Shown here piece by piece: positions 6,330 through 33,529 of a stretch of DNA of 33,852 nucleotides. The notes beneath the pieces are model-generated. The model was not told the origin of the DNA and did not search any database. It saw only the letters and a list, made by a program, of their open reading frames with translations. How positions within the stretch are numbered: the stretch's first letter is position 1; each line of letters starts with the position of its first letter. Origin of the DNA: Sedimentisphaeraceae bacterium JB056 (GTDB lineage Bacteria > Planctomycetota > Phycisphaerae > Sedimentisphaerales > Sedimentisphaeraceae); assembly GCA_044440125.1 (NCBI GenBank), contig JBITAJ010000020.1, positions 1-33,852 on the forward strand, given 5' to 3'. The translations under genes were made by a program, and so were the position numbers.

Positions 6330-8060
6330 ATGTTTATTGATGGTGTAGGGATATCAGGTTATAGAAGTTTTGGTAAGAATATCCAAAGAATTGGTCCTTT
6401 CAAGAAAGTTAATTTTCTTATAGGCAAGAATAATTCAGGAAAATCCAATATTCTCAGTTTTATCAGAGAGCAATACCCCAAAATTGTTTCAGGTGAACCT
6501 TGCAGTTTATCGCAACTTGACAACCATATAGGTTTGGAAGCAGAGAGCGCCTATGAATTTGGCATCGAAATAGGAGGGAAAAATATAGAGAATCTACTGA
6601 AAGTTTTGGTTAAAGATGATTCTATGTTTGAAATTATTGAACGTTTAATAAGAAAGATTTTGACATCAGATTTTTTTAGAAATAAAACAGAATTGGCTTG
6701 GTTTCCATATATTCCTCTTAGAGACGATGGTAGCCTTATAAAAAAAGTATCATTGAAGGTTGAGGAGGCTGAAGTATTGTCTCCAGATGAGTGGCAAACT
6801 TTGTGGAGTTTGTTCACTAATCAGACTGAAGGTAATATCGGTCTGCATTGGATACCAGAAACATTAGGTTTTTTATGTCGAAGACTAAGACATAACATAA
6901 AAGTTTCATTTATGCCTGTTATACGGCAAGTGGATAGTGGTTCTGAGAGTTCTGATAAACTTATTGTTAATGGACACGGACTTGTTAAAGAATTGGCAAA
7001 ACTTGAAAAGCCCAGATATGACCAACAGCACCTTAAAGAAAAATTTGAAGAAATAAACAATTTTCTTCAAACAGTAACAGGTAATAATACTGCCAGAATT
7101 GAAATTCCGAGTGAACAAAATATGATTCAGGTAGATATGGATGGGAAAACTTTGCCGTTGAGTTCTTTGGGGACAGGATTACATCAGGTAATAATAATCG
7201 CATCTGCTGCGACTGTTTTAGAGAATCAGGTTATTTGCATTGAAGAGCCAGAAATTCATTTGCATCCACTTTTACAGAGACAATTACTCCGTTATTTGTC
7301 AGAGAATACAAATAATCAGTATTTTATTGCCTCTCATTCTACGCATATGTTAGAAACACCAGATGCTGCAATATTTCATATTCGTCTTGAAGATGGTTGC
7401 AGTGTAGTGAGTAATGTAGCTAATGATTTGCAAAAATCACAAATTTGTGATGAGTTAGGCTATAAGGCATCAGATATACTTCAGGCTAATTGCATTATAT
7501 GGGTTGAAGGACCATCAGATAGAATATATATAAATAATTGGATTCATTCTAAAGACGCAACCCTGATTGAAGGTTTACATTATTCAATAATGTTTTATGG
7601 TGGAAGATTGTTGAGCCATTTAACAGCAGAAGATTCAGATGTTGATGACTTTATCTCTCTAAGGCGTCTTAACAGGCATATGGCTATAGTTATTGATAGT
7701 GATAAGAAAAAGAAGGCTGATGAAATTAATGATACAAAAAAGAGAGTTAAGTCCGAGTTTGAGGAGTATGACGATTTTGTCTGGATAACTGAAGGTAAAG
7801 AGATTGAGAATTATTTGAGTTCAGATTCAATTAGTCAAGCATTAAGAGAATTATATACCGATGATGTAGATATTATTAAATATTCCGAATTTAACAATTG
7901 CATTCAAGTTAAAAAGAAAGATGGTAAGTATAAAACTGCTGATAAAGTTAAATTGGCTAAAATTATCAAAAAACAGAAGATAAATTTCGGGGTCATGGAT
8001 TTAGAAGAAAAGATAGATTCATTAGTTGAGTATATACGTAAAGCCAATTGTGAAAGTTAG
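6330..8060 (+). CDS. OLD-family ATP-dependent nuclease (ABC ATPase + TOPRIM), putative anti-phage effector
   Basis: Walker A GKNNSGKS, signature-like SLGTG, Walker B ICIEEPEIHLHP, H-loop ASHS, TOPRIM WVEGPSD, DxD (IDSD) and KEIENYL. Visibly more AT-rich than its neighbours. Confidence 0.88.
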   Translation: MFIDGVGISGYRSFGKNIQRIGPFKKVNFLIGKNNSGKSNILSFIREQYPKIVSGEPCSLSQLDNHIGLEAESAYEFGIEIGGKNIENLLKVLVKDDSMFEIIERLIRKILTSDFFRNKTELAWFPYIPLRDDGSLIKKVSLKVEEAEVLSPDEWQTLWSLFTNQTEGNIGLHWIPETLGFLCRRLRHNIKVSFMPVIRQVDSGSESSDKLIVNGHGLVKELAKLEKPRYDQQHLKEKFEEINNFLQTVTGNNTARIEIPSEQNMIQVDMDGKTLPLSSLGTGLHQVIIIASAATVLENQVICIEEPEIHLHPLLQRQLLRYLSENTNNQYFIASHSTHMLETPDAAIFHIRLEDGCSVVSNVANDLQKSQICDELGYKASDILQANCIIWVEGPSDRIYINNWIHSKDATLIEGLHYSIMFYGGRLLSHLTAEDSDVDDFISLRRLNRHMAIVIDSDKKKKADEINDTKKRVKSEFEEYDDFVWITEGKEIENYLSSDSISQALRELYTDDVDIIKYSEFNNCIQVKKKDGKYKTADKVKLAKIIKKQKINFGVMDLEEKIDSLVEYIRKANCES

Positions 8061-25080: not shown

Positions 25081-25929
25081 TTGGAAAAAATATACGTAAC
25101 AGATCTTGATGGAACGCTTTTGAATAGTGAAGGGCGTTTGTCTGATAATTCCTGCAATGAGCTTAAGAGTCTTATTTCTGATGGAGCGAGGATAACCGTT
25201 GCCAGTGCGAGAAATTTGGCATCAATAAGGCGGCTGCTTCGGGATGTTTCTTTGTCTCTTCCTGTTATCGAGATAAACGGGGCGTTTGTCTCTGATTATG
25301 TTACGGGCAGGCATCTTTGTGTCAATGATATACCTCAATCAATATCGGCAGAGATATGCAGTTTATGTGAGGATAATGGTTGTGTGCCGTTTCTTGCCGC
25401 ATTTGACGGTAAGGAGGATCATCTTTTCTATGAGGCGGTAACCAATGAAGGTATGGAGTGGTTTATTGCTGATAAGACTGAAGATCATGCCGAAAGACTG
25501 AAAAAGCGTAAAATTACTCCTGAGATATTGGCGATGAATATTGTCTGCTTTGTCATTATAGGGGATGTTGAAGTTGTTGGGCGTATAAATGATAATATAG
25601 TGGAAAGATTCGGTGATGAACTTGACAGTTACTTTTTTCCCAATCCCTACAATCCCCAATGGCAATGGCTGACAATACACGATAAGAATGCACGTAAATC
25701 TAACGGGATTTATGAGCTTCTGAGGATTCAGGGGATGAGCTATGAGCAGCTTGTTGTGTTTGGCGATCAGGAAAACGATCTTGCTATGATGGAAGTCAAT
25801 AAGAGTGGAGCAGTGTCAGTGGCAGTTGGTAATGCAATAGATTCAGTAAAGACTGCTGCTACAAAGATATGCAGAAGCAATGATGAGGATGGTGTTGTAC
25901 AGTATATAGCGGAAGATTTTTATTCTTAA
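25081..25929 (+). CDS. Cof-type HAD-IIB hydrolase
   Basis: [42 protein letters not shown] start uncertain (25069 or 25081). Confidence 0.92.
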
Positions 25930-27353
25930 TCTAACCATTTTTTCAATATTTCAGCCAGTGATTTAGGGGTTACCGGTTTGGAAATATAATCATTCATTCC
26001 GATGCTGAGGCATTCTTTCCTGTCACCATCCATTGCGTTTGCTGTCATTGCTATTATAGGTAAATTAGGATTTTTGATTTTGTCTTTAGATTTACGTATC
26101 TTCTCTGTTGCCTTAAGACCGTCAAGTACCGGCATCTGTACATCCATTAGTACCAGTTCGTAATCATTTTTTTCAAGAGCAGTTATCGCTTCCAGACCTG
26201 TCTGAGCAATGTCTGCATTAACACCCAGTTTTTCAAGAATACTGATTGCTACTTTCTGATTAATTATATTGTCTTCTGCAATTAATATTTTTCGCCCTCT
26301 CAGGGAGTTGGGATTGCTGTTTACGATTGCTGTATTTAATTGCGATGAAATTGTCGTTTTTTTCGAGGTTTGTTTGATAAATTTACCGGTGAACCAGAAA
26401 GAGGAACCTTCGTTTTCGATGCTTTGTACTCCTATTTCCCCTCCGGAAAGTTCGACCAATTTTTTGGATATTGCCAGCCCGAGTCCGGAGCCGCTGAAGT
26501 GCTTCATCTTGGAGTTGTCAAGTCTTTCAAAAGCGTTGAAAAGAAGTGGTAATTTTTCTTGTGCAATACCGATACCGGTATCTTTGACCTCAAACTTTAT
26601 TGTTACTATATCGTTTAATTCTCCTTCGCTGGTTATGTTGATCTCAACTTTACCTTTTTCGGTAAATTTGACAGCATTGCCAACAAGATTCAAAAGGATT
26701 TGCTTAAGTCTGCCAGGGTCTCCCTGAAGGTCAGTCAGCACATCAGAATCGATGTTTTTTGTGATTACGAGACCTTTTTCCTTAGCGTCAAATGATACTA
26801 TGTCAATTGTTTCATCGATTATAGTGTTCAGTTCAAAATCTGTTATGTCGAATTTAAGTTTGCCGGCTTCTATCCTTGAAAAATCAAGTATGTCATTAAT
26901 TAAGTTCAAGACTGAGCGGCTGCTTGAACTTAGTATTTTTGTGTAGCGGTATTGTTCTCTGGAAAGGCTTGTGTCCAAGAGAAGTTCGACCATCCCTATT
27001 ATACCATTCATTGGGGTTCTGATCTCATGACTCATATTGGCCAAAAATCTGCTTTTGGCGATAGTGGCAGACTGTGCTTCTTCTGCCATTTTTTGAGATT
27101 GTTTCATTGCTTCTTTGAGCTTTTTATTGGTATCTTCAAGCTTCTGCTTGGATTGGCGGAGCTCAATACTCTTTTCTATGGATTCAGCCTGATATTTGTC
27201 AGTGATCGAAAGTACTTTATAGAATTGCTCGGACAGCTTTATGTAAGCTTGAGCTACTTCAAAGTAATCATGAGCCATAGGTGACTGGTCAACTGCCAAT
27301 TCCGGAAGGCGGCTTATTAGTTTTTCCAGAAGGATATCTGAGTCATGATTCAT
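25926..27353 (-). CDS. cytoplasmic hybrid histidine kinase (SiaD-like helix / coiled coil - HisKA - HATPase - REC)
   Basis: [43 protein letters not shown] / LMDVQMP / MTANA / SKP. No TM, PAS or GAF visible. Start MNHDSD after CAGGAG. Confidence 0.93.
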
Positions 27354-27408
27354 TTTTTTCTGCTCCTGATTAATACATAGCAGTAATTTCAAGAATTACC
27401 GAATTGTT

Positions 27409-27774
27409 TTATATAGGCCTTATTTCAAAAGGCATCTCAACGTCTTCTTTGAATTCTTCAGCCAAATCCATTGCCCTGTCGTTCTCTCTATCGTATTTCC
27501 ATATTATCTGGATATTTTTCCCATTTTCATGAGCTTCTTCGAGCATGTCAAGTATATCAAGCATACATTTAGTAGTACTTGAGTTCATGTAGCCTATGTT
27601 GATATCGAAAATAAAAGTTTCATATTTAGGGAATTCTTTTCGGAACCAATTGAATAGGGGTTTGAAGAATTCGAAGGAATTTTCAGGGTAGCAATCACCC
27701 TCTATTCTCATAGTTGAACTGTCAGATTCGAACTTAATTAAGGGCGTAGATTTCGTTGGTTTGGTGTTTATCAT
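27409..27774 (-). CDS. siaC: SiaC-family phosphoprotein (DUF1987)
   Basis: STPLI, GDCYPENSFEF, YMNSSTTK, LDMLEEAH, WKYDREN, LAEEFKED match the SiaC pattern as recalled. Confidence 0.9.
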   Translation of the reverse strand: MINTKPTKSTPLIKFESDSSTMRIEGDCYPENSFEFFKPLFNWFRKEFPKYETFIFDINIGYMNSSTTKCMLDILDMLEEAHENGKNIQIIWKYDRENDRAMDLAEEFKEDVEMPFEIRPI

Positions 27775-27776
27775 TT

Positions 27777-28319
27777 TTAAATCCCTTTAACGGTTACAAA
27801 TAAACTGAAAAAATCATATTCACCGTCTTTTTCTTCGAACCTGTATCTAAGTTTCTCTGAAGCACGCTTCGCCATATCCATAAGTCCAAGACCTGCACCT
27901 GTAGAGTTCGGAGGGAGTTCTTTTCTTATTTGCTGCTTATACAGCTTTCTAAGTCCTTCTTTGTCGTTTGAGTTTATGAGGTCTATATGTTCCTTTAAAG
28001 CAGGAACATCTGCTTTCCTGATGGTGTTGCCTGAGCAAACCGTATAGTAGCCATTGTTGTTCATAATCACGACTATTGCGGAATTATCAATATTACTTTC
28101 AAAGTCTTTGCGAGAAAGGTAGTTTCTGCAGTTTTGGGTTTGCTCTACATATACTGCAAATACATCTGTTATTGTACCTTTTGTAAGCTTTTGACCTTCG
28201 AGATGATGCTTTATAGCATTGCCTATTTCTTCGATAATGCTGTGGGTGAACGGCCCGTTAAAGCTTATAAGTATACCCTTTTCTGAAAAGTCATCCTTCA
28301 GTTTTAATAAGTTAGGCAT
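27777..28319 (-). CDS. siaB: SiaB-family GHKL-type protein kinase (DUF6272)
   Basis: LISFNGPFTHSIIEEIGNA, DVFAVYVEQTQN, SGN, LRKLYKQQIR, GAGLGLMDMAKRAS. Confidence 0.9.
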   Translation of the reverse strand: MPNLLKLKDDFSEKGILISFNGPFTHSIIEEIGNAIKHHLEGQKLTKGTITDVFAVYVEQTQNCRNYLSRKDFESNIDNSAIVVIMNNNGYYTVCSGNTIRKADVPALKEHIDLINSNDKEGLRKLYKQQIRKELPPNSTGAGLGLMDMAKRASEKLRYRFEEKDGEYDFFSLFVTVKGI

Positions 28320-30352
28320 TATTTATCCTCCGGAACTTTAATTTCAAAGCCTATCATTGTAACGTCATCTCTTTGCAGATAGTTGCCTCTGTAATTATCT
28401 AATAATTCGATGAATCGTTCTTTTTGCTCATTCATCGGTACTTTTTGATTTTCTATTATCATGTTTTTGAGTTTTCTGCGGCCAAGCCCAAATCCTTTTT
28501 TTCCGCCAGGCAGGTCAAGAACCCCATCCGTCAACATATAGTAGCGTTTTTTGCCATTTAATTCAAGTGAATGATTGGTGAATTTATATTCTTTGCGTGA
28601 GTTTGAGAAACCAAGGTGCAGTTTGTCTCCCGATATTTCTTCTATATTGTTGCTTTCAATAGTTATGAGTCCCAGACCTGCACCTGAAAATTTGAGGTTC
28701 TTTTCCCTGAGGTTCACTTTACATAGTGCTATATCGAGTCCATTTTCAAGATGTGAAAAGTCGTTTTCACTTCTGAGAGTTTCCTGAACAAGATAGTGCA
28801 GCTTTTCAAGCATTGCAGAAGGTTCTGAATGCGGCATTGTTTCTATGACCCTGCTTAAAAGGGCGGCAGTCATCATAGTCATGAAAGCTCCCGGAACGCC
28901 GTGGCCTGTGCAGTCAACAACTGCAACAAAAAAACCTTCATCTGTTTTCTGGAAGAAATAAAAGTCTCCGCCTACGATATCAAGAGGTTGGAAAATAGTG
29001 AAGTAATCTTTGAGACTGTCATCAAGCTCTTTTTCCGGCGGCAGTATTGAACTTTGTATTAATTTTGCGTATTGTATAGAGTCTGTGATTCGTTTCTGAG
29101 ATTCAATAAGCTCTTTATTGGCTGAATTTAAAGCTTCTGTACGCTTTTCAACCATTTGTTCGAGGTTTCTTGTATAGTTCTTGATTTTAGCAGTCATTAT
29201 ATTGAATGAGTCACTTAATCTGCCGATTTCATTGCTTTTTGCCGGCGGCAGTGATGTCTCATATGCCCCTTCGGCAACAAGGCCTGCCGCATCAGTCAAT
29301 CTGCCAAGAGGTCTTAGTACAAGTTTGTTGAGTATTAGTAATACACAGAACATGACTGCAAGCAAGGATATCAGAAATATGATTCCGATTGGCATAAAAT
29401 CAGTGAGGCCCATGACAAGACTGCCGTCAACCAGTACAAGGTTGTACCAGCCAAGCTCCGGTATGCTGCTGATGGTCGCTATTATCTTTTTGCCGCCAAT
29501 ATTTAATTTGAATTGTTCCAGCTTGGCTGAATCCGATACCTTCAGTACTGCTTCCCTGATTGTGTCTTTATCTTGCTTGCTATCCAATAAATCGTATATT
29601 GTCTTTTTGTCGATGTCTTTGCGTACTCGTGCATTGTGTTCTATCAGACTGCGGTCTTTGTAAGCCTGCAGTTGGCCGGTGGAATTTATGATTATTGTCT
29701 CAACTCCAGGTTCATGGTCTTCTATGAGGTCTCTGAGGAAATTTCCAAGATCCATTCCTGAACCAGCCATTCCGATAGGGCTACCGTGATTGTCACGTAC
29801 TATCACGTTGAACCATACCCTTACTTCATCAAGTTGAAGGTTATAGTCAACATTGATATAATGAGACCTGTTGCCCTCTATTGCATCATAAAACCATTTG
29901 GAATATGGGTCATCAGGACTTAATGTGTTCTCAGAATCTTTGACACCATTAATATAGTATGAACCGGTTTTGAGTATGGCTATGAAATTTGTTCCTGATT
30001 TGAGGAATCTATTGTAACTTTGAAGTTCTTTTTCTATTGAATTCTGAAGCTGCTTATCGTCTTCGTTGAGCATCCACTCAATCAGTCCGGGGTCGTTGGC
30101 AAGTTTACGGCTGAGAGCAAGTTCACTTTGTACAAGTGAAAGTATGCGGTTTTTCTCGAGCATATTTTGTGATAAAGCAAAACGTTTGACGTATTGATCT
30201 CCTACTTTGCCAACGCTTATCTTAAAAACGAGTAAGGTAGCAATCGCTGTTATAAAATATATCAGGATTAAAACAGCCCCAAAGACCCTCTTGAGTGACC
30301 CTCGCTTTTTATGCAATGAGGGAGTGTTTGCTATATCTCTATTTATACTCAT
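28319..30352 (-). CDS. siaA: SiaA-family membrane sensor phosphatase (periplasmic Cache-like - HAMP - SpoIIE/PP2C)
   Basis: Two TM segments, HAMP (LRPLGRL...NEIGRLSDSFNIM), PP2C motifs VGGDFY, DCTGHGVPGAFMT, GLDI, TDG, QRDDVT. Stop overlaps siaB start. Confidence 0.9.
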   Translation of the reverse strand: MSINRDIANTPSLHKKRGSLKRVFGAVLILIYFITAIATLLVFKISVGKVGDQYVKRFALSQNMLEKNRILSLVQSELALSRKLANDPGLIEWMLNEDDKQLQNSIEKELQSYNRFLKSGTNFIAILKTGSYYINGVKDSENTLSPDDPYSKWFYDAIEGNRSHYINVDYNLQLDEVRVWFNVIVRDNHGSPIGMAGSGMDLGNFLRDLIEDHEPGVETIIINSTGQLQAYKDRSLIEHNARVRKDIDKKTIYDLLDSKQDKDTIREAVLKVSDSAKLEQFKLNIGGKKIIATISSIPELGWYNLVLVDGSLVMGLTDFMPIGIIFLISLLAVMFCVLLILNKLVLRPLGRLTDAAGLVAEGAYETSLPPAKSNEIGRLSDSFNIMTAKIKNYTRNLEQMVEKRTEALNSANKELIESQKRITDSIQYAKLIQSSILPPEKELDDSLKDYFTIFQPLDIVGGDFYFFQKTDEGFFVAVVDCTGHGVPGAFMTMMTAALLSRVIETMPHSEPSAMLEKLHYLVQETLRSENDFSHLENGLDIALCKVNLREKNLKFSGAGLGLITIESNNIEEISGDKLHLGFSNSRKEYKFTNHSLELNGKKRYYMLTDGVLDLPGGKKGFGLGRRKLKNMIIENQKVPMNEQKERFIELLDNYRGNYLQRDDVTMIGFEIKVPEDK

Positions 30353-30534
30353 AAATTTGCTCTGCTAAATTGCTCATTTTAAGCAACCCATTAACATTTC
30401 TTAGTAAAAATACTGCAATATTTTAAACTACCGGGTTCTTTGTGGCAAGTTTAATTTTATTTTACATTTCACAGAGATATCTCTATATATGGATGCCTAA
30501 TTAATCCTTAAGCAGTATTAAGTTTGACAATGGG

Positions 30535-30563: not shown

Positions 30564-30737
30564 CTTAGTTCATTTACATCCGAATGGGTGGCCGGACAGG
30601 GGTGTAAGGTCACTGGGATTAAACTGTTCGACAAGTTAGTGTAGGCTATATCTTGTTGAATTGTAATGATTTATGTTCATTTATGTTTAAGGGATAGTTC
30701 CGCAAACATAGTATTTAATACAGGAAAAGGGAAATCT

Positions 30738-31676
30738 TTGACAACAACGCATACGAAGACACTGATCAAAATCGGTGAGTCTTTGCATGCTTCAATTGCG
30801 CGCTGCGGTGAAGCTATGCAAAAAATTCATGACTCAAACGACCAGACATCTCTGGCCCTCATTCAGGAACTAATAACTACTCAAGCCGATTGCGGTGCTG
30901 ATTTTATCGAAGTTAATGTTGATAAGTTCGGTGAGCTTGGCTGGGATGTCGCTGCGGAGATGATGAAGAAATACGTAGCAATGGTAGCCGAGTTCGGCAA
31001 GGGGGTTCCTGCCTGCATTGACAGCAGTAATAATGAACTTCTTGAAGCCGGTCTTGAGAGCTGGTATGCTGCGGGCGCAGAGGCCAAGCCGCTTATTAAC
31101 TCGATTAAGCCAGATAATGCCGACAGACTTTTCTCATTGAAAGATAAATATCCGTTTGTTTTTATTGGGCTTCTAATGTCACATGCCAGCGAGAATCCGG
31201 TTCAGGATCTTGTTGATCAGGCGGAGCTTATTTTTGACAAAGCTGCTGCTGCCGGTTTTGCGGCAAATGATATATATTATGATACCGGAGCATTTCCACT
31301 CTCAATTGATATGCCGATGATGCCTGGAGAAAAAGGACGAACATTTACTGCTTTTGAGACAATAAAGGCGTTGAAAGATAATCCGAAATTTGCAGGTGTT
31401 CATTTTTCCCTTGGCATAAGCAATTGTGCGAAGGATTTGCCTGGACGCAGAATCGGTGTGATAAAAGCATATATCCAGAAGGCGATGGAATACGGCCTTG
31501 ATGCCGGCATCATTGACGTTCGCAGGGACTGGTTCCAGCCGGCTCCTGCTGAAGAGCTTGTCGAGCTTGTTACTGCATTTGCAGAGATAGACGGTTCTTC
31601 TGAGAAGCAGATGGATGCTATGAGCCGGATGTCGCAGTTTTGTCAGGACTGCAGAGATGCGAAGGGGGCGAAATGA
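30738..31676 (+). CDS. pterin-binding protein (AcsE / MetH folate-binding domain-like methyltransferase)
   Basis: IKIGESL, GADFIEVNV, CIDSS, LINSI, YYD, LGISN, GLDAGI. Probable TTG start after AGGAAAAGGG. Confidence 0.8.
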   Translation: MTTTHTKTLIKIGESLHASIARCGEAMQKIHDSNDQTSLALIQELITTQADCGADFIEVNVDKFGELGWDVAAEMMKKYVAMVAEFGKGVPACIDSSNNELLEAGLESWYAAGAEAKPLINSIKPDNADRLFSLKDKYPFVFIGLLMSHASENPVQDLVDQAELIFDKAAAAGFAANDIYYDTGAFPLSIDMPMMPGEKGRTFTAFETIKALKDNPKFAGVHFSLGISNCAKDLPGRRIGVIKAYIQKAMEYGLDAGIIDVRRDWFQPAPAEELVELVTAFAEIDGSSEKQMDAMSRMSQFCQDCRDAKGAK

Positions 31677-33529
31677 GCAAACTTAAAAACTTATTAGCAA
31701 ACGGCGTTGTAATAGGCGATGGTGCCATTGGTACATTGCTTTACCAACGAGGTGTATTTGTCAATCGCTGCTTTGAGGAATTGAATATTACCGGCCGGCA
31801 GCAGATTAAAGATCTTCATTGTGATTACGTTAATGCCGGCAGTGATTTTATTGAGACCAATACTTATGGAGCCAACAAAATAAAACTTGCTGCCTTCGGT
31901 CTTTCTGACAAAGTAAGAGAGCTTAATATCGCTGGTGTTGATATTGCAAGAGAGGCAGCCGGTGAAGATGTTTTGGTCGCGGGTTCTGTAGGGCCTGTTG
32001 TCTCAGGATTCAGAACTATTGATGCACAGCAGGCGGAGGAACTTGAGGACGTTTATAAGGAGCAGGTCTCTGCACTTGTAGAGGGCGGTGTTGATTTTAT
32101 TATTCTCGAGACATTCAGTAATAGTGATGATCTTCTGATTGCTGTTGAGGCGGCCGCAGAAGTTTGTGAACTTGAGATAGTGGCTTCTTTACGCCCCGAG
32201 CCAGATCAGACAGAGGCTGATACTGATAAGCTTTGCAGGGATTTTGCCCGAATTGCGGCAAATGACAATGTTGCAGTTATGGGGCTTAACTGTGGAGCAG
32301 GTCCGGCTATTATGCTTCGTTATCTTGAAGCTGTAAGGAATATCAGCGAAAAACCGCTGTGTATTCAAGCTAACGTTGGTATGCCGCAAATGGTTGACGG
32401 GCGTATGATTTATATGGCGACTCCTGAGTATGTCGCCGAATATGCTAAGAGATTTTATGAAAAGGGAGCTGATATCATAGGCGGTTGCTGTGGTACAGGC
32501 CCAGAGCATATCAAAGAGATATGCAAGGCGGTTAAATCAGTCAGCCGTGCTGATAGAGAGGCAGGGAGAGTTGCCTCAGAGCTGACAGTGGTTGACGCAG
32601 AACTTCCAGAACCGGCGACTGCTTTTGCAAACAGGAGCCGTTTTGCAGAGAAAATTGCTTCTGGAAAGAAAGTACGTTTGATTGAAGTTACCCCTCCAAG
32701 ATCGATAAGCCTCGAGTCCATTATTGAGAAGGTGCAGCTTTGCAGTGAGAAAGGTATAGATGCAATCAACATACCTGATGGGCCAAGGGCTTCGTGCAGG
32801 CAGTCGGCACTTTCGGCGGCAATTAATATATCAAGACAGGTTGATACCGAGGTGATTCTGCATGTCTGCTCAAGAGACCGGAATATCATTGCTCTCCAGT
32901 CGGATATGCTTGGAGCTCAGTCGCTTGGTGTCAATAATATGCTCTTTATTACCGGCGATCCTCCAAAGCTTGGCGATTATCCTGACGCTACAGGTGTTTT
33001 TGATGTTGACGCCGTAGGGCTTGTACGTATGGGCGATATGCTTAACCGCGGCTTTGATGTTAGCGGCAGAGCAATACCGCAGGCTACATCGCTTACTATA
33101 GGTGTCGGTGTTAATCCTGGTGCCAATGATATGAAACGCGAACTTGATCGTTTTGAAATGAAGGTGCGTGCCGGCGCTGAATATTGTATTACTCAGCCGG
33201 CTTTTGATACTGATGTATTCAAGCGGTTTGTTGATTCGATTGACGATTTCCGAATTCCTGTGATAGCGGGAATATGGCCTTTTGTCAGCTATAAGAACGC
33301 GGAATTTATGGCAAATGAGGTTCCGGGAGTTGTCGTGCCGCAAAACCTGCTTGAGAGAATGAGCAAGACGAACAATAAGGAAGATGCTATAAAAGTAGGT
33401 GTCGATATTGTTCGTGAGTCAATGGAGGCAACAGAAGATCTGGTAGCAGGCTTTGCCGTATGTGCGCCTTTTGGGAATGTTAAGATTGCTCTGGCGGCAT
33501 ATGGCCTGATAGATGCCGACGAAATATAA
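31673..33529 (+). CDS. yitJ: bifunctional homocysteine S-methyltransferase / methylenetetrahydrofolate reductase
   Basis: DGAIGT, ETNTYGAN, GLNC and GGCCGT zinc ligands, then MTHFR EVTPP, NIPDGPRA, HVCSRDRN, ITGDPP, ITQP. ATGA overlap with upstream stop. Confidence 0.93.
   Translation: MSKLKNLLANGVVIGDGAIGTLLYQRGVFVNRCFEELNITGRQQIKDLHCDYVNAGSDFIETNTYGANKIKLAAFGLSDKVRELNIAGVDIAREAAGEDVLVAGSVGPVVSGFRTIDAQQAEELEDVYKEQVSALVEGGVDFIILETFSNSDDLLIAVEAAAEVCELEIVASLRPEPDQTEADTDKLCRDFARIAANDNVAVMGLNCGAGPAIMLRYLEAVRNISEKPLCIQANVGMPQMVDGRMIYMATPEYVAEYAKRFYEKGADIIGGCCGTGPEHIKEICKAVKSVSRADREAGRVASELTVVDAELPEPATAFANRSRFAEKIASGKKVRLIEVTPPRSISLESIIEKVQLCSEKGIDAINIPDGPRASCRQSALSAAINISRQVDTEVILHVCSRDRNIIALQSDMLGAQSLGVNNMLFITGDPPKLGDYPDATGVFDVDAVGLVRMGDMLNRGFDVSGRAIPQATSLTIGVGVNPGANDMKRELDRFEMKVRAGAEYCITQPAFDTDVFKRFVDSIDDFRIPVIAGIWPFVSYKNAEFMANEVPGVVVPQNLLERMSKTNNKEDAIKVGVDIVRESMEATEDLVAGFAVCAPFGNVKIALAAYGLIDADEI

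Follow-up and report, generated by a model that had tools for sequence, protein, structure and literature searches.

Which enzyme is controlled by the phospho-switch protein SiaC where the gene behind siaC does not encode the diguanylate cyclase SiaD? This question is raised by a group of four genes in a stretch of 33,852 nucleotides from Sedimentisphaeraceae bacterium JB056 (contig JBITAJ010000020.1, positions 1 to 33,852; hereafter the window), in which siaA, siaB and siaC are followed by a gene for a hybrid histidine kinase. In Pseudomonas the serine-threonine switch made up of SiaA, SiaB and SiaC is known to turn on a c-di-GMP enzyme of biofilm formation. A preliminary description had proposed that SiaC controls this kinase. 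The present analysis supports the proposal in silico: the kinase carries a motif resembling the SiaC-docking sites of SiaD, related N-termini are encoded directly behind siaC in other genomes, a 2:2 complex of the kinase with SiaC is predicted, and neither a SiaD nor a second docking module was found in the genome. Since the kinase carries what appears to be the SiaC-docking helix of SiaD, the switch most likely drives a two-component phosphorelay. We consider it probable that the four genes form an operon for a SiaABC partner switch whose output is a sensor-less hybrid histidine kinase in place of SiaD, with the switch driving the phosphorelay, likely by activation.

Gene order and protein families of the locus

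In agreement with the preliminary description, the list of minus-strand reading frames gives the order siaA, siaB, siaC and kinase, with an overlap of 1 bp between siaA and siaB (base 28319 is shared), a gap of two bases between siaB and siaC, and 55 bp between siaC and the kinase gene. The features of the locus are as follows.

28319-30352, minus strand: siaA, 677 residues; membrane sensor phosphatase with a transmembrane (TM) segment, a periplasmic dCache-like domain, a second TM segment, HAMP, a coiled coil and PP2C
27777-28319, minus strand: siaB, 180 residues; SiaB-family protein kinase, predicted to phosphorylate SiaC
27409-27774, minus strand: siaC, 121 residues; phospho-switch protein, codon of Ser65 at 27580-27582
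27354-27408, minus strand: spacer between siaC and the kinase gene, 55 bp, with an AGGAG ribosome-binding site read from the sequence
25926-27353, minus strand: hybrid histidine kinase, 475 residues; SiaD-like N-terminal module, coiled coil, HisKA, HATPase_c and receiver domain (REC)
27177-27239, minus strand: predicted SiaC-docking segment of the kinase, residues 39-59, with the core K46-V-L-S-I-T-D-K-Y-Q55 at 27189-27218
27027-27029 and 26142-26144, minus strand: codons of the phospho-accepting residues of the kinase assigned from the sequence, His109 and Asp404 of REC
30420-30448, minus strand: promoter-like site upstream of siaA, TTGCCA-17-TAAAAT, in a divergent intergenic region of 313 bp; a consensus match only

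The longest reading frame of the kinase (25926-27392, 488 residues) begins with TTG. The ATG at 27353 is the most likely start, as it is preceded by the AGGAG sequence and all five homologues align from this methionine, and it is this start that gives the 55-bp gap behind siaC. Between 25700 and 30800 no terminator-like site was found, compared with 3.9 expected from shuffled sequences, and hence none between the four genes. At the downstream end the kinase gene and a convergent gene for a HAD hydrolase overlap by 4 bp at their stop codons (25926-25929), which leaves no room for a terminator between them; the operon therefore ends at the kinase. Promoter-like matches upstream of siaA were not enriched, with 17 found and 13.6 expected from shuffles. 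The four genes are probably co-transcribed. A search for sequencing runs that contain this DNA turned up metagenomic DNA contigs and no RNA.

For SiaA the suggested sensor-HAMP-PP2C architecture was recovered by Pfam, with matches to SpoIIE/PP2C (3e-19), HAMP (2e-9) and dCache_1 (3e-10), the last at 40.5 bits and under the cut-off of 45. Residues 392-670 align to the PP2C domain of Pseudomonas aeruginosa SiaA (6k4e, E-value 4.6e-58) with the metal-site sequences GGDFY, VDCTGHG, TDG and RDD retained, and the NCBIfam SiaA equivalog model is collinear with the protein end to end (27-671), at 548 bits against a cut-off of 700. SiaB matches DUF6272 (PF19788, 9e-40) and the P. aeruginosa crystal chain 6kko_A (E-value 5e-34), and its E59 retains the reported catalytic Glu61 to which it is aligned. 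Its NCBIfam score lies above the cut-off of the SiaB_fam_kinase subfamily model NF038262 (190.6 against 85) and below that of the equivalog NF038264 (169 against 225). SiaC matches PF09345 (3e-37) and crystal chain 6kko_C (E-value 1.2e-28), with an equivalog score of 133.7 against a cut-off of 150. Judged by these matches the three proteins are members of the SiaA, SiaB and SiaC families and not close orthologues of the Pseudomonas ones.

Opposite the phosphorylated Thr68 of P. aeruginosa SiaC, a residue at the start of helix alpha2, the window SiaC has Ser65, a predicted phosphosite within the conserved sequence Y-x-N-S/T-S. The residues Y29, Y62, N64, S65, S66, D76, R100, L104, E107 and D111 correspond to Y31, Y65, N67, T68, S69, D79, R103, L107, E110 and D114 of the Pseudomonas protein; these ten are the SiaD-contact residues named in PMC8457831, and all of them are conserved.

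The fourth protein had been described as a HisKA-HATPase-REC kinase with neither a GGDEF nor a sensor domain, and Pfam agrees (HisKA 9e-23, HATPase_c 5e-27, Response_reg 3e-26). It has no Hpt domain, and no Pfam family was matched in its first 98 residues. The H-box histidine, the N, G1 and G2 boxes, and the receiver aspartate together with its conserved lysine are all present. Across six kinase sequences, with homologues as little as 37-41% identical, the residues H109, N222, N226, D258, G260, G262, G288, G290, G292, D361, D404 and K459 are invariant. The best NCBIfam similarities, to TorS (388 bits) and BarA (364 bits), place the protein among kinases of the TorS/BarA/ArcB type, all of them under the cut-offs. 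An AF2 model of the monomer (mean pLDDT 77.5) shows a helix at residues 3-21, an unbroken helix at 25-126 and a further one at 132-163, and the N-terminus is modelled as soluble helices. Hence, the kinase is predicted to be soluble and sensor-less.

The predicted SiaC-docking motif and its surroundings

In the solved complex of SiaC and SiaD (7E6G) four SiaC molecules are described as binding two conserved motifs on the stalk helices of dimeric SiaD, with contacts to R74, K77, V78, R80, I81, S82, D83, R84, Y85, Q86, M88, R90 and D91 of SiaD (PMC8457831). SiaC places its Thr68 between the stalks, where it bonds with S82 and Q86, and binding is reported to be abolished by phosphorylation of Thr68 or by the triple mutation N67A/T68A/S69A (PMC8457831). 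The preliminary description had SiaC bind the N-terminal helix of SiaD; the binding itself agrees with the published complex, the site is slightly off, as PMC8457831 puts the binding sites on the stalk helix.

When a SiaD-like protein was aligned to chain 7e6g_A, the two motifs of SiaD were identified as RIARISDGFQS and KVARISDRYQQ. Residues 46-55 of the kinase (K46-V-L-S-I-T-D-K-Y-Q55) align to both of them, with K46, V47, I50, T51, D52, K53, Y54 and Q55 corresponding to K77, V78, I81, S82, D83, R84, Y85 and Q86 of SiaD. The SiaC-binding stalk motif, I-S-D-x-Y/F-Q with an upstream K/R-V, is thus found on the kinase in a single copy, compared with two in SiaD. Alignment of the kinase N-terminus with proteins encoded after siaC shows ISDxYQ in GGDEF proteins as well, often in two copies. 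The likeness extends beyond the motif, since tblastn aligned residues 11-73 of the kinase with the beginning of the GGDEF gene in locus L002 (E-value 5e-9), indicating that the whole small N-terminal domain and the first motif of SiaD are present on the kinase. A phmmer search of kinase residues 1-117 against the PDB gave H-box matches to other kinases only and no SiaD at E-values up to 10; the relation to SiaD emerged only via the alignment with SiaD-like proteins of siaC loci.

In the predicted structure the docking motif and His109 lie on one helix, which continues as helix 1 of the DHp bundle. The distance from the aspartate of the motif to the histidine in seven kinases of the subfamily (the window kinase, P0005-P0009 and L018) is 57, 57, 50, 50, 43, 43 and 43 residues, so that all seven values equal 1 modulo 7. 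The spacing differs by whole heptads, as expected of a continuous coiled coil that keeps its register. This count excludes the kinase of locus L066, which is of another HisKA subtype and has 52 residues between motif and histidine by hand count, outside the series.

The preliminary description had called for a prediction of the SiaC-kinase complex. Such a complex, made up of residues 1-180 of the kinase and SiaC in two copies each, was modelled from alignments in three runs and with three controls. All three runs scored 0.81, compared with 0.46 for the best of the controls, with a partner pLDDT of 89-90 and at least 80% of contacts shared between runs; of 157 solved complexes 116 reached the mark applied to this score, as did 2 of 215 mismatched pairs. 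In the model, kinase residues 39, 42-57 and 59 face SiaC residues 29, 31, 33, 62, 64-66, 68-69, 72-73, 76, 99-100, 103-104, 107 and 111. This interface covers all ten SiaC equivalents of the 7E6G contacts and places N64, S65 and S66 of SiaC on the motif. As a like complex has already been solved, the pass may be due to resemblance to 7E6G.

Linkage to siaC was assessed in metagenomes with an alignment of kinase N-termini (72 residues) that contained neither SiaC nor the kinase core. Nine loci were found. In every one siaC lies directly upstream and siaB is present, and siaA was seen in the seven loci whose contigs are long enough. The motif-bearing proteins of these loci are one HisKA kinase (L018, cut at the contig end), one PAS-HATPase kinase (L021) and seven GGDEF proteins, two of which are identical. 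Kinases also follow siaC in L004 and L066; for the subfamily of the window kinase the linkage rests on the window and L018. A scan with the single window SiaC sequence gave eight loci.

Within the genome of the window, which is 99.8% complete, no competing target of SiaC was found. It encodes one SiaC and one GGDEF protein (contig C11), and the latter is without a docking module; a true siaD elsewhere, which had been named as a possible target, was thus not detected in this metagenome bin. Among 20,717 six-frame reading frames the profile of the docking module matches only the window kinase (E-value 3.6e-26, next best 0.29), so that the arrangement is not a product of chance. The motif as a regular expression has four matches genome-wide, of which only that in the kinase stands in the right context.

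Proposed course of signalling and its alternatives

Several observations weigh against control of the kinase by SiaC. SiaD has two docking motifs and the kinase only one, in which a threonine takes the place of the serine that hydrogen-bonds Thr68. The complex model shows likeness, not binding, and one control scored 0.46. All three switch proteins fall under the NCBIfam equivalog cut-offs. As the genome is a metagenome bin, the statement that it holds no SiaD depends on the binning and on the completeness given above. No cognate Hpt or response regulator was found linked to the operon, and promoter-like hexamers within siaC (27551-27523 and 27530-27503) make an internal promoter possible. Finally, SiaD is activated by a change from pentamer to dimer, a step for which a kinase that is dimeric by necessity offers no obvious equivalent.

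Some of these points would also fit a kinase that is a mere neighbour of the switch or has its own promoter, with SiaC acting on an unlinked target or on none and the motif surviving from a domain swap as a relic that has lost SiaC binding. The 55-bp gap and the hexamers within siaC could be read in this way, as could the single motif with its serine-to-threonine exchange, and siaC does occur without a motif-bearing neighbour, next to DUF350 proteins (L030, L031) or a porin (L067). However, even the most divergent of the kinases compared keep the motif together with its heptad distance from His109, which is unexpected of a relic, and siaC lies upstream at each of the loci found by the N-terminus alone. 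With no other module-bearing protein in the genome and no terminator-like site in the operon, we regard this explanation as very unlikely.

We infer the following course for SiaC binding to the kinase, for the way this depends on phosphorylation, for the sign of the effect and for the downstream relay. SiaB would phosphorylate SiaC at Ser65, and SiaA would take the phosphate off again in response to a stimulus that acts on its periplasmic dCache-like domain or membrane segment. Unphosphorylated SiaC would then dock as a pair on the K46-Q55 motif and clamp the dimeric N-terminal stalk of the kinase at residues 42-59. Through the continuous coiled-coil helix that leads to His109, docking may shift the register of the DHp bundle or affect its stability, and thereby change autophosphorylation. 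The next acceptor of the phosphoryl group would be Asp404 in the fused receiver, from which a separate Hpt protein and a response regulator would probably take over the relay.

By analogy with SiaD, which is activated by SiaC and is the sole characterised precedent (PMC8457831), the effect of SiaC on the kinase would most likely be activation. Because the pentamer-to-dimer change of SiaD has no evident counterpart in a dimeric kinase, either sign of regulation is conceivable. SiaC might instead dock and inhibit the kinase, or shift it to phosphatase activity or reverse transfer, in which case stimulation of SiaA would turn the relay off. The evidence for docking is identical under both signs; histidine kinases are already dimers, for which the dimer-stabilising logic of SiaD need not mean activation, and a clamped coiled coil can favour either signalling state. 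The sequence itself gives no indication of the sign, and the precedent of SiaD speaks against inhibition, which we hold to be rather unlikely but a serious alternative.

The missing Hpt domain of the kinase and the lack of a nearby response regulator gene bear on a further possibility, namely that the kinase acts on the switch, either as a sink or scaffold for SiaC or with its receiver controlling SiaA or SiaB, while the true output lies elsewhere. Two-component input to a partner switch is known from HptB-HsbR-HsbA (PMC6482189). The kinase has, however, exactly the position and the docking module of SiaD, and the same module is found on output enzymes with GGDEF, class III cyclase and HD domains. 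Both its catalytic and its receiver residues are preserved, and the fused Hpt seen in relatives fits a forward relay. An action of the kinase on the switch therefore appears highly improbable, the least credible of the readings considered. For a forward relay driven by SiaC, candidate Hpt partners are present in the genome, which has three Hpt matches, including fused Hpt domains and a stand-alone Hpt of 138 residues (contig C19); the kinase homologues with a fused Hpt are P0009, P0143 and P0151.

Distribution and comparison with known systems

No SiaC was detected in 40 relatives or in a sample of 400 further genomes of the host phylum, which makes the cassette sporadic in this lineage. With a GC content of 0.387 it lies below both the genome (0.416) and the remainder of the contig (0.431). 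This low value is too weak as proof of horizontal transfer, for which the absence from relatives is a stronger hint. An empty insertion site was not shown: relatives of the same family keep a pterin-binding/metH-like gene pair, and the HAD gene was not found within 1.5 kb of it.

The preliminary description had suggested a survey of the gene after siaC, and in the genomes examined the outputs include GGDEF proteins, histidine kinases and class III cyclases. In a sample of Spirochaetota SiaC was matched in 42 of 301 genomes, and 30 loci were examined. In 24 of them the gene behind siaA-siaB-siaC encodes a protein of about 487 residues with the variant helix K[LI]MKIGDSTQ (L032-L056, for example L033:7-1467); Pfam was run on eight of these proteins, and all eight are GAF proteins with a class III adenylate/guanylate cyclase domain. 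The remaining loci comprise three shorter cyclases, two DUF350 membrane proteins without the motif and one ambiguous case. This suggests, from the domain content, that these loci mediate SiaC-controlled synthesis of cAMP or cGMP, which was not found in the literature searched. Among Thermodesulfobacteriota SiaC was matched in 13 of 301 sampled genomes, and the downstream genes include GGDEF and PAS-GGDEF proteins, a GAF protein at a contig end and a HisKA-HATPase-REC hybrid kinase. The last belongs to L066, where it follows siaABC and has the helix RLIRLGDIMQ.

An alignment of 24 docking modules, taken from the window and from locus DNA only, was used for an exhaustive profile search against 1.84 billion representative proteins, which gave 826 proteins at E-values up to 0.001. 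Pfam was applied to 145 of the top 150 of these, five fragments shorter than 100 residues having been dropped. The census gave 95 GGDEF proteins, 24 proteins of the histidine-kinase type, three class III cyclases, one HD/HD_5 protein, one with PAS only, one containing SiaC and 20 without a family; as kinases and cyclases were among the seeds, these shares are indicative only. Ten of the kinase-type proteins are hybrid kinases, and HisKA_2, HisKA_3 and fused Hpt domains are also represented in this class. A word-indexed search with the module alignment, limited to 7,997 candidates, gave 44 GGDEF proteins among 46 matches, a tally that understates the kinases because this search missed the known kinase homologues P0005-P0009.

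In a tree of SiaC with 35 rows the window SiaC falls into a well-supported clade (97/92) of eight, of which four are linked to GGDEF proteins, two to PAS kinases and two to HisKA kinases. The SiaC of L066 stands elsewhere in the tree, and the supported branches require at least two origins of the HisKA wiring. From these data we incline to the view that the docking helix acts as a universal plug, a single short coiled-coil motif that can couple the SiaA/B/C switch to four or more enzyme classes (GGDEF cyclases, class III cyclases, several histidine-kinase subfamilies and HD-domain proteins), the known dimeric ones being controlled through their N-terminal stalk. In this genome the His-Asp phosphorelay would then be the only output, with SiaC, so far known just as a regulator of c-di-GMP, as its sole input, and the kinase wiring would have arisen at least twice.

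Further arrangements were seen among the loci and proteins collected. Many SiaD-like GGDEF proteins have a Cys-rich, zinc-ribbon-like insert (for example IPICAxCKK...HGLCPxC) after the first docking motif (L005:7207-8547, L007:1240-2391, L023-L026, L074:1860-3041, L019:3292-4371); it is absent from P. aeruginosa SiaD, and several of these proteins, L005, L007 and L074 among them, have a further docking motif behind it. Of P0150 and P0182, one protein combines the docking module with HD/HD_5, and another gene call has a SiaC domain and then the docking helix, either a fusion or a read-through call. The gene order is siaB-siaC-siaA in L060, with a Tll0287-like sensor on the PP2C protein, and siaB-siaC in front of the motif-free DUF350 membrane proteins of L030 and L031; the siaC beside the porin gene of L067 is an orphan. 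A Bacteroidetes genome from a metagenome (G437) encodes 14 SiaC-family paralogues; the one in L009 is preceded by a gene for an ECF sigma factor and followed by a gene for a 600-residue protein that has neither a Pfam match nor the docking motif.

Two other features of the window lie apart from the switch. At 6330-8060 on the plus strand, between argJ and mfd, a low-GC island (0.33, flanks about 0.45) encodes an AAA_15/AAA_21 ATPase of 576 residues that resembles the defence ATPases AriA and GajA (PADLOC E-values 1e-22 and 6e-22); its neighbours include no evident partner gene. The plus-strand region 30666-33529 holds a split and rearranged methionine-synthase-like pair, consisting of a 336-residue pterin-binding protein, whose gene overlaps the next by 37 bp, and a 629-residue fusion of homocysteine S-methyltransferase and MTHFR. 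The two genes are adjacent in relatives of the same family too.

The preliminary description knew of no characterised case of a histidine kinase under SiaC, and none came to light here. The literature searched on SiaC, SiaB, SiaD, DUF1987, DUF6272 and PF09345 yielded no description of SiaC acting on a kinase or on a class III cyclase, and passages of PMC7647112, PMC12834913, PMC7278518 and PMC9239204 mention no such target. The general idea had been put forward in eLife in 2021, where DUF1987 proteins were suggested to probably modulate adjacent proteins (PMC8457831).

If the proposed course holds, Ser/Thr phosphorylation would be linked directly to His-Asp signalling, and the SiaC mechanism would extend beyond c-di-GMP, with a sequence signature for SiaC-controlled enzymes of several kinds. 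Soluble, sensor-less histidine kinases are common, and their controlling input is usually not known. For one such kinase the operon offers a specific candidate, a phospho-switch protein that would act on a motif of ten residues joined to the catalytic histidine by one continuous helix. The heptad-conserving linker may also serve as a simple model for a coiled-coil clamp that is transmitted to the DHp bundle.

Among known systems the closest is SiaABCD of P. aeruginosa (PA0172-PA0169; 6K4E, 6K4F, 6KKO, 6KKP, 7E6G). Both have the order of sensor-PP2C, SiaB kinase, SiaC and output enzyme, and they share the phosphosite column, the SiaC interface residues, and the N-terminal module and stalk motif of the output protein. 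They differ in that output, which in the window is a HisKA-HATPase-REC protein and presumably a His-Asp phosphorelay instead of a GGDEF enzyme and c-di-GMP, and in the number of motifs, one instead of two. SiaA, SiaB and SiaC are recognisable by sequence in the window and a GGDEF output enzyme is not; the system is therefore a SiaABCD variant with a swapped output and not a member of that system. With the kinases of the TorS/BarA/ArcB type the window kinase has the H-box, the N, G1 and G2 boxes of HATPase_c and the fused receiver in common, but it lacks their transmembrane, periplasmic, HAMP or PAS input and a fused Hpt, and has a SiaD-like stalk of 98 residues instead. Switches of the STAS/RsbV-RsbW type, such as HsbA-HsbD and BgrV-BgrR, likewise use a small phosphoprotein whose unphosphorylated form regulates the output enzyme (PMC8457831). 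Their outputs, however, are diguanylate cyclases or sigma factors, whereas here the output is a histidine kinase, and SiaC belongs to DUF1987/PF09345 and not, at the sequence level, to STAS. The siaABC-class III cyclase loci of Spirochaetota have the same siaA-siaB-siaC order, followed by a protein that starts with a variant of the docking helix; this protein is a GAF and class III cyclase, and its SiaC is 28-32% identical to that of the window and falls into another clade.

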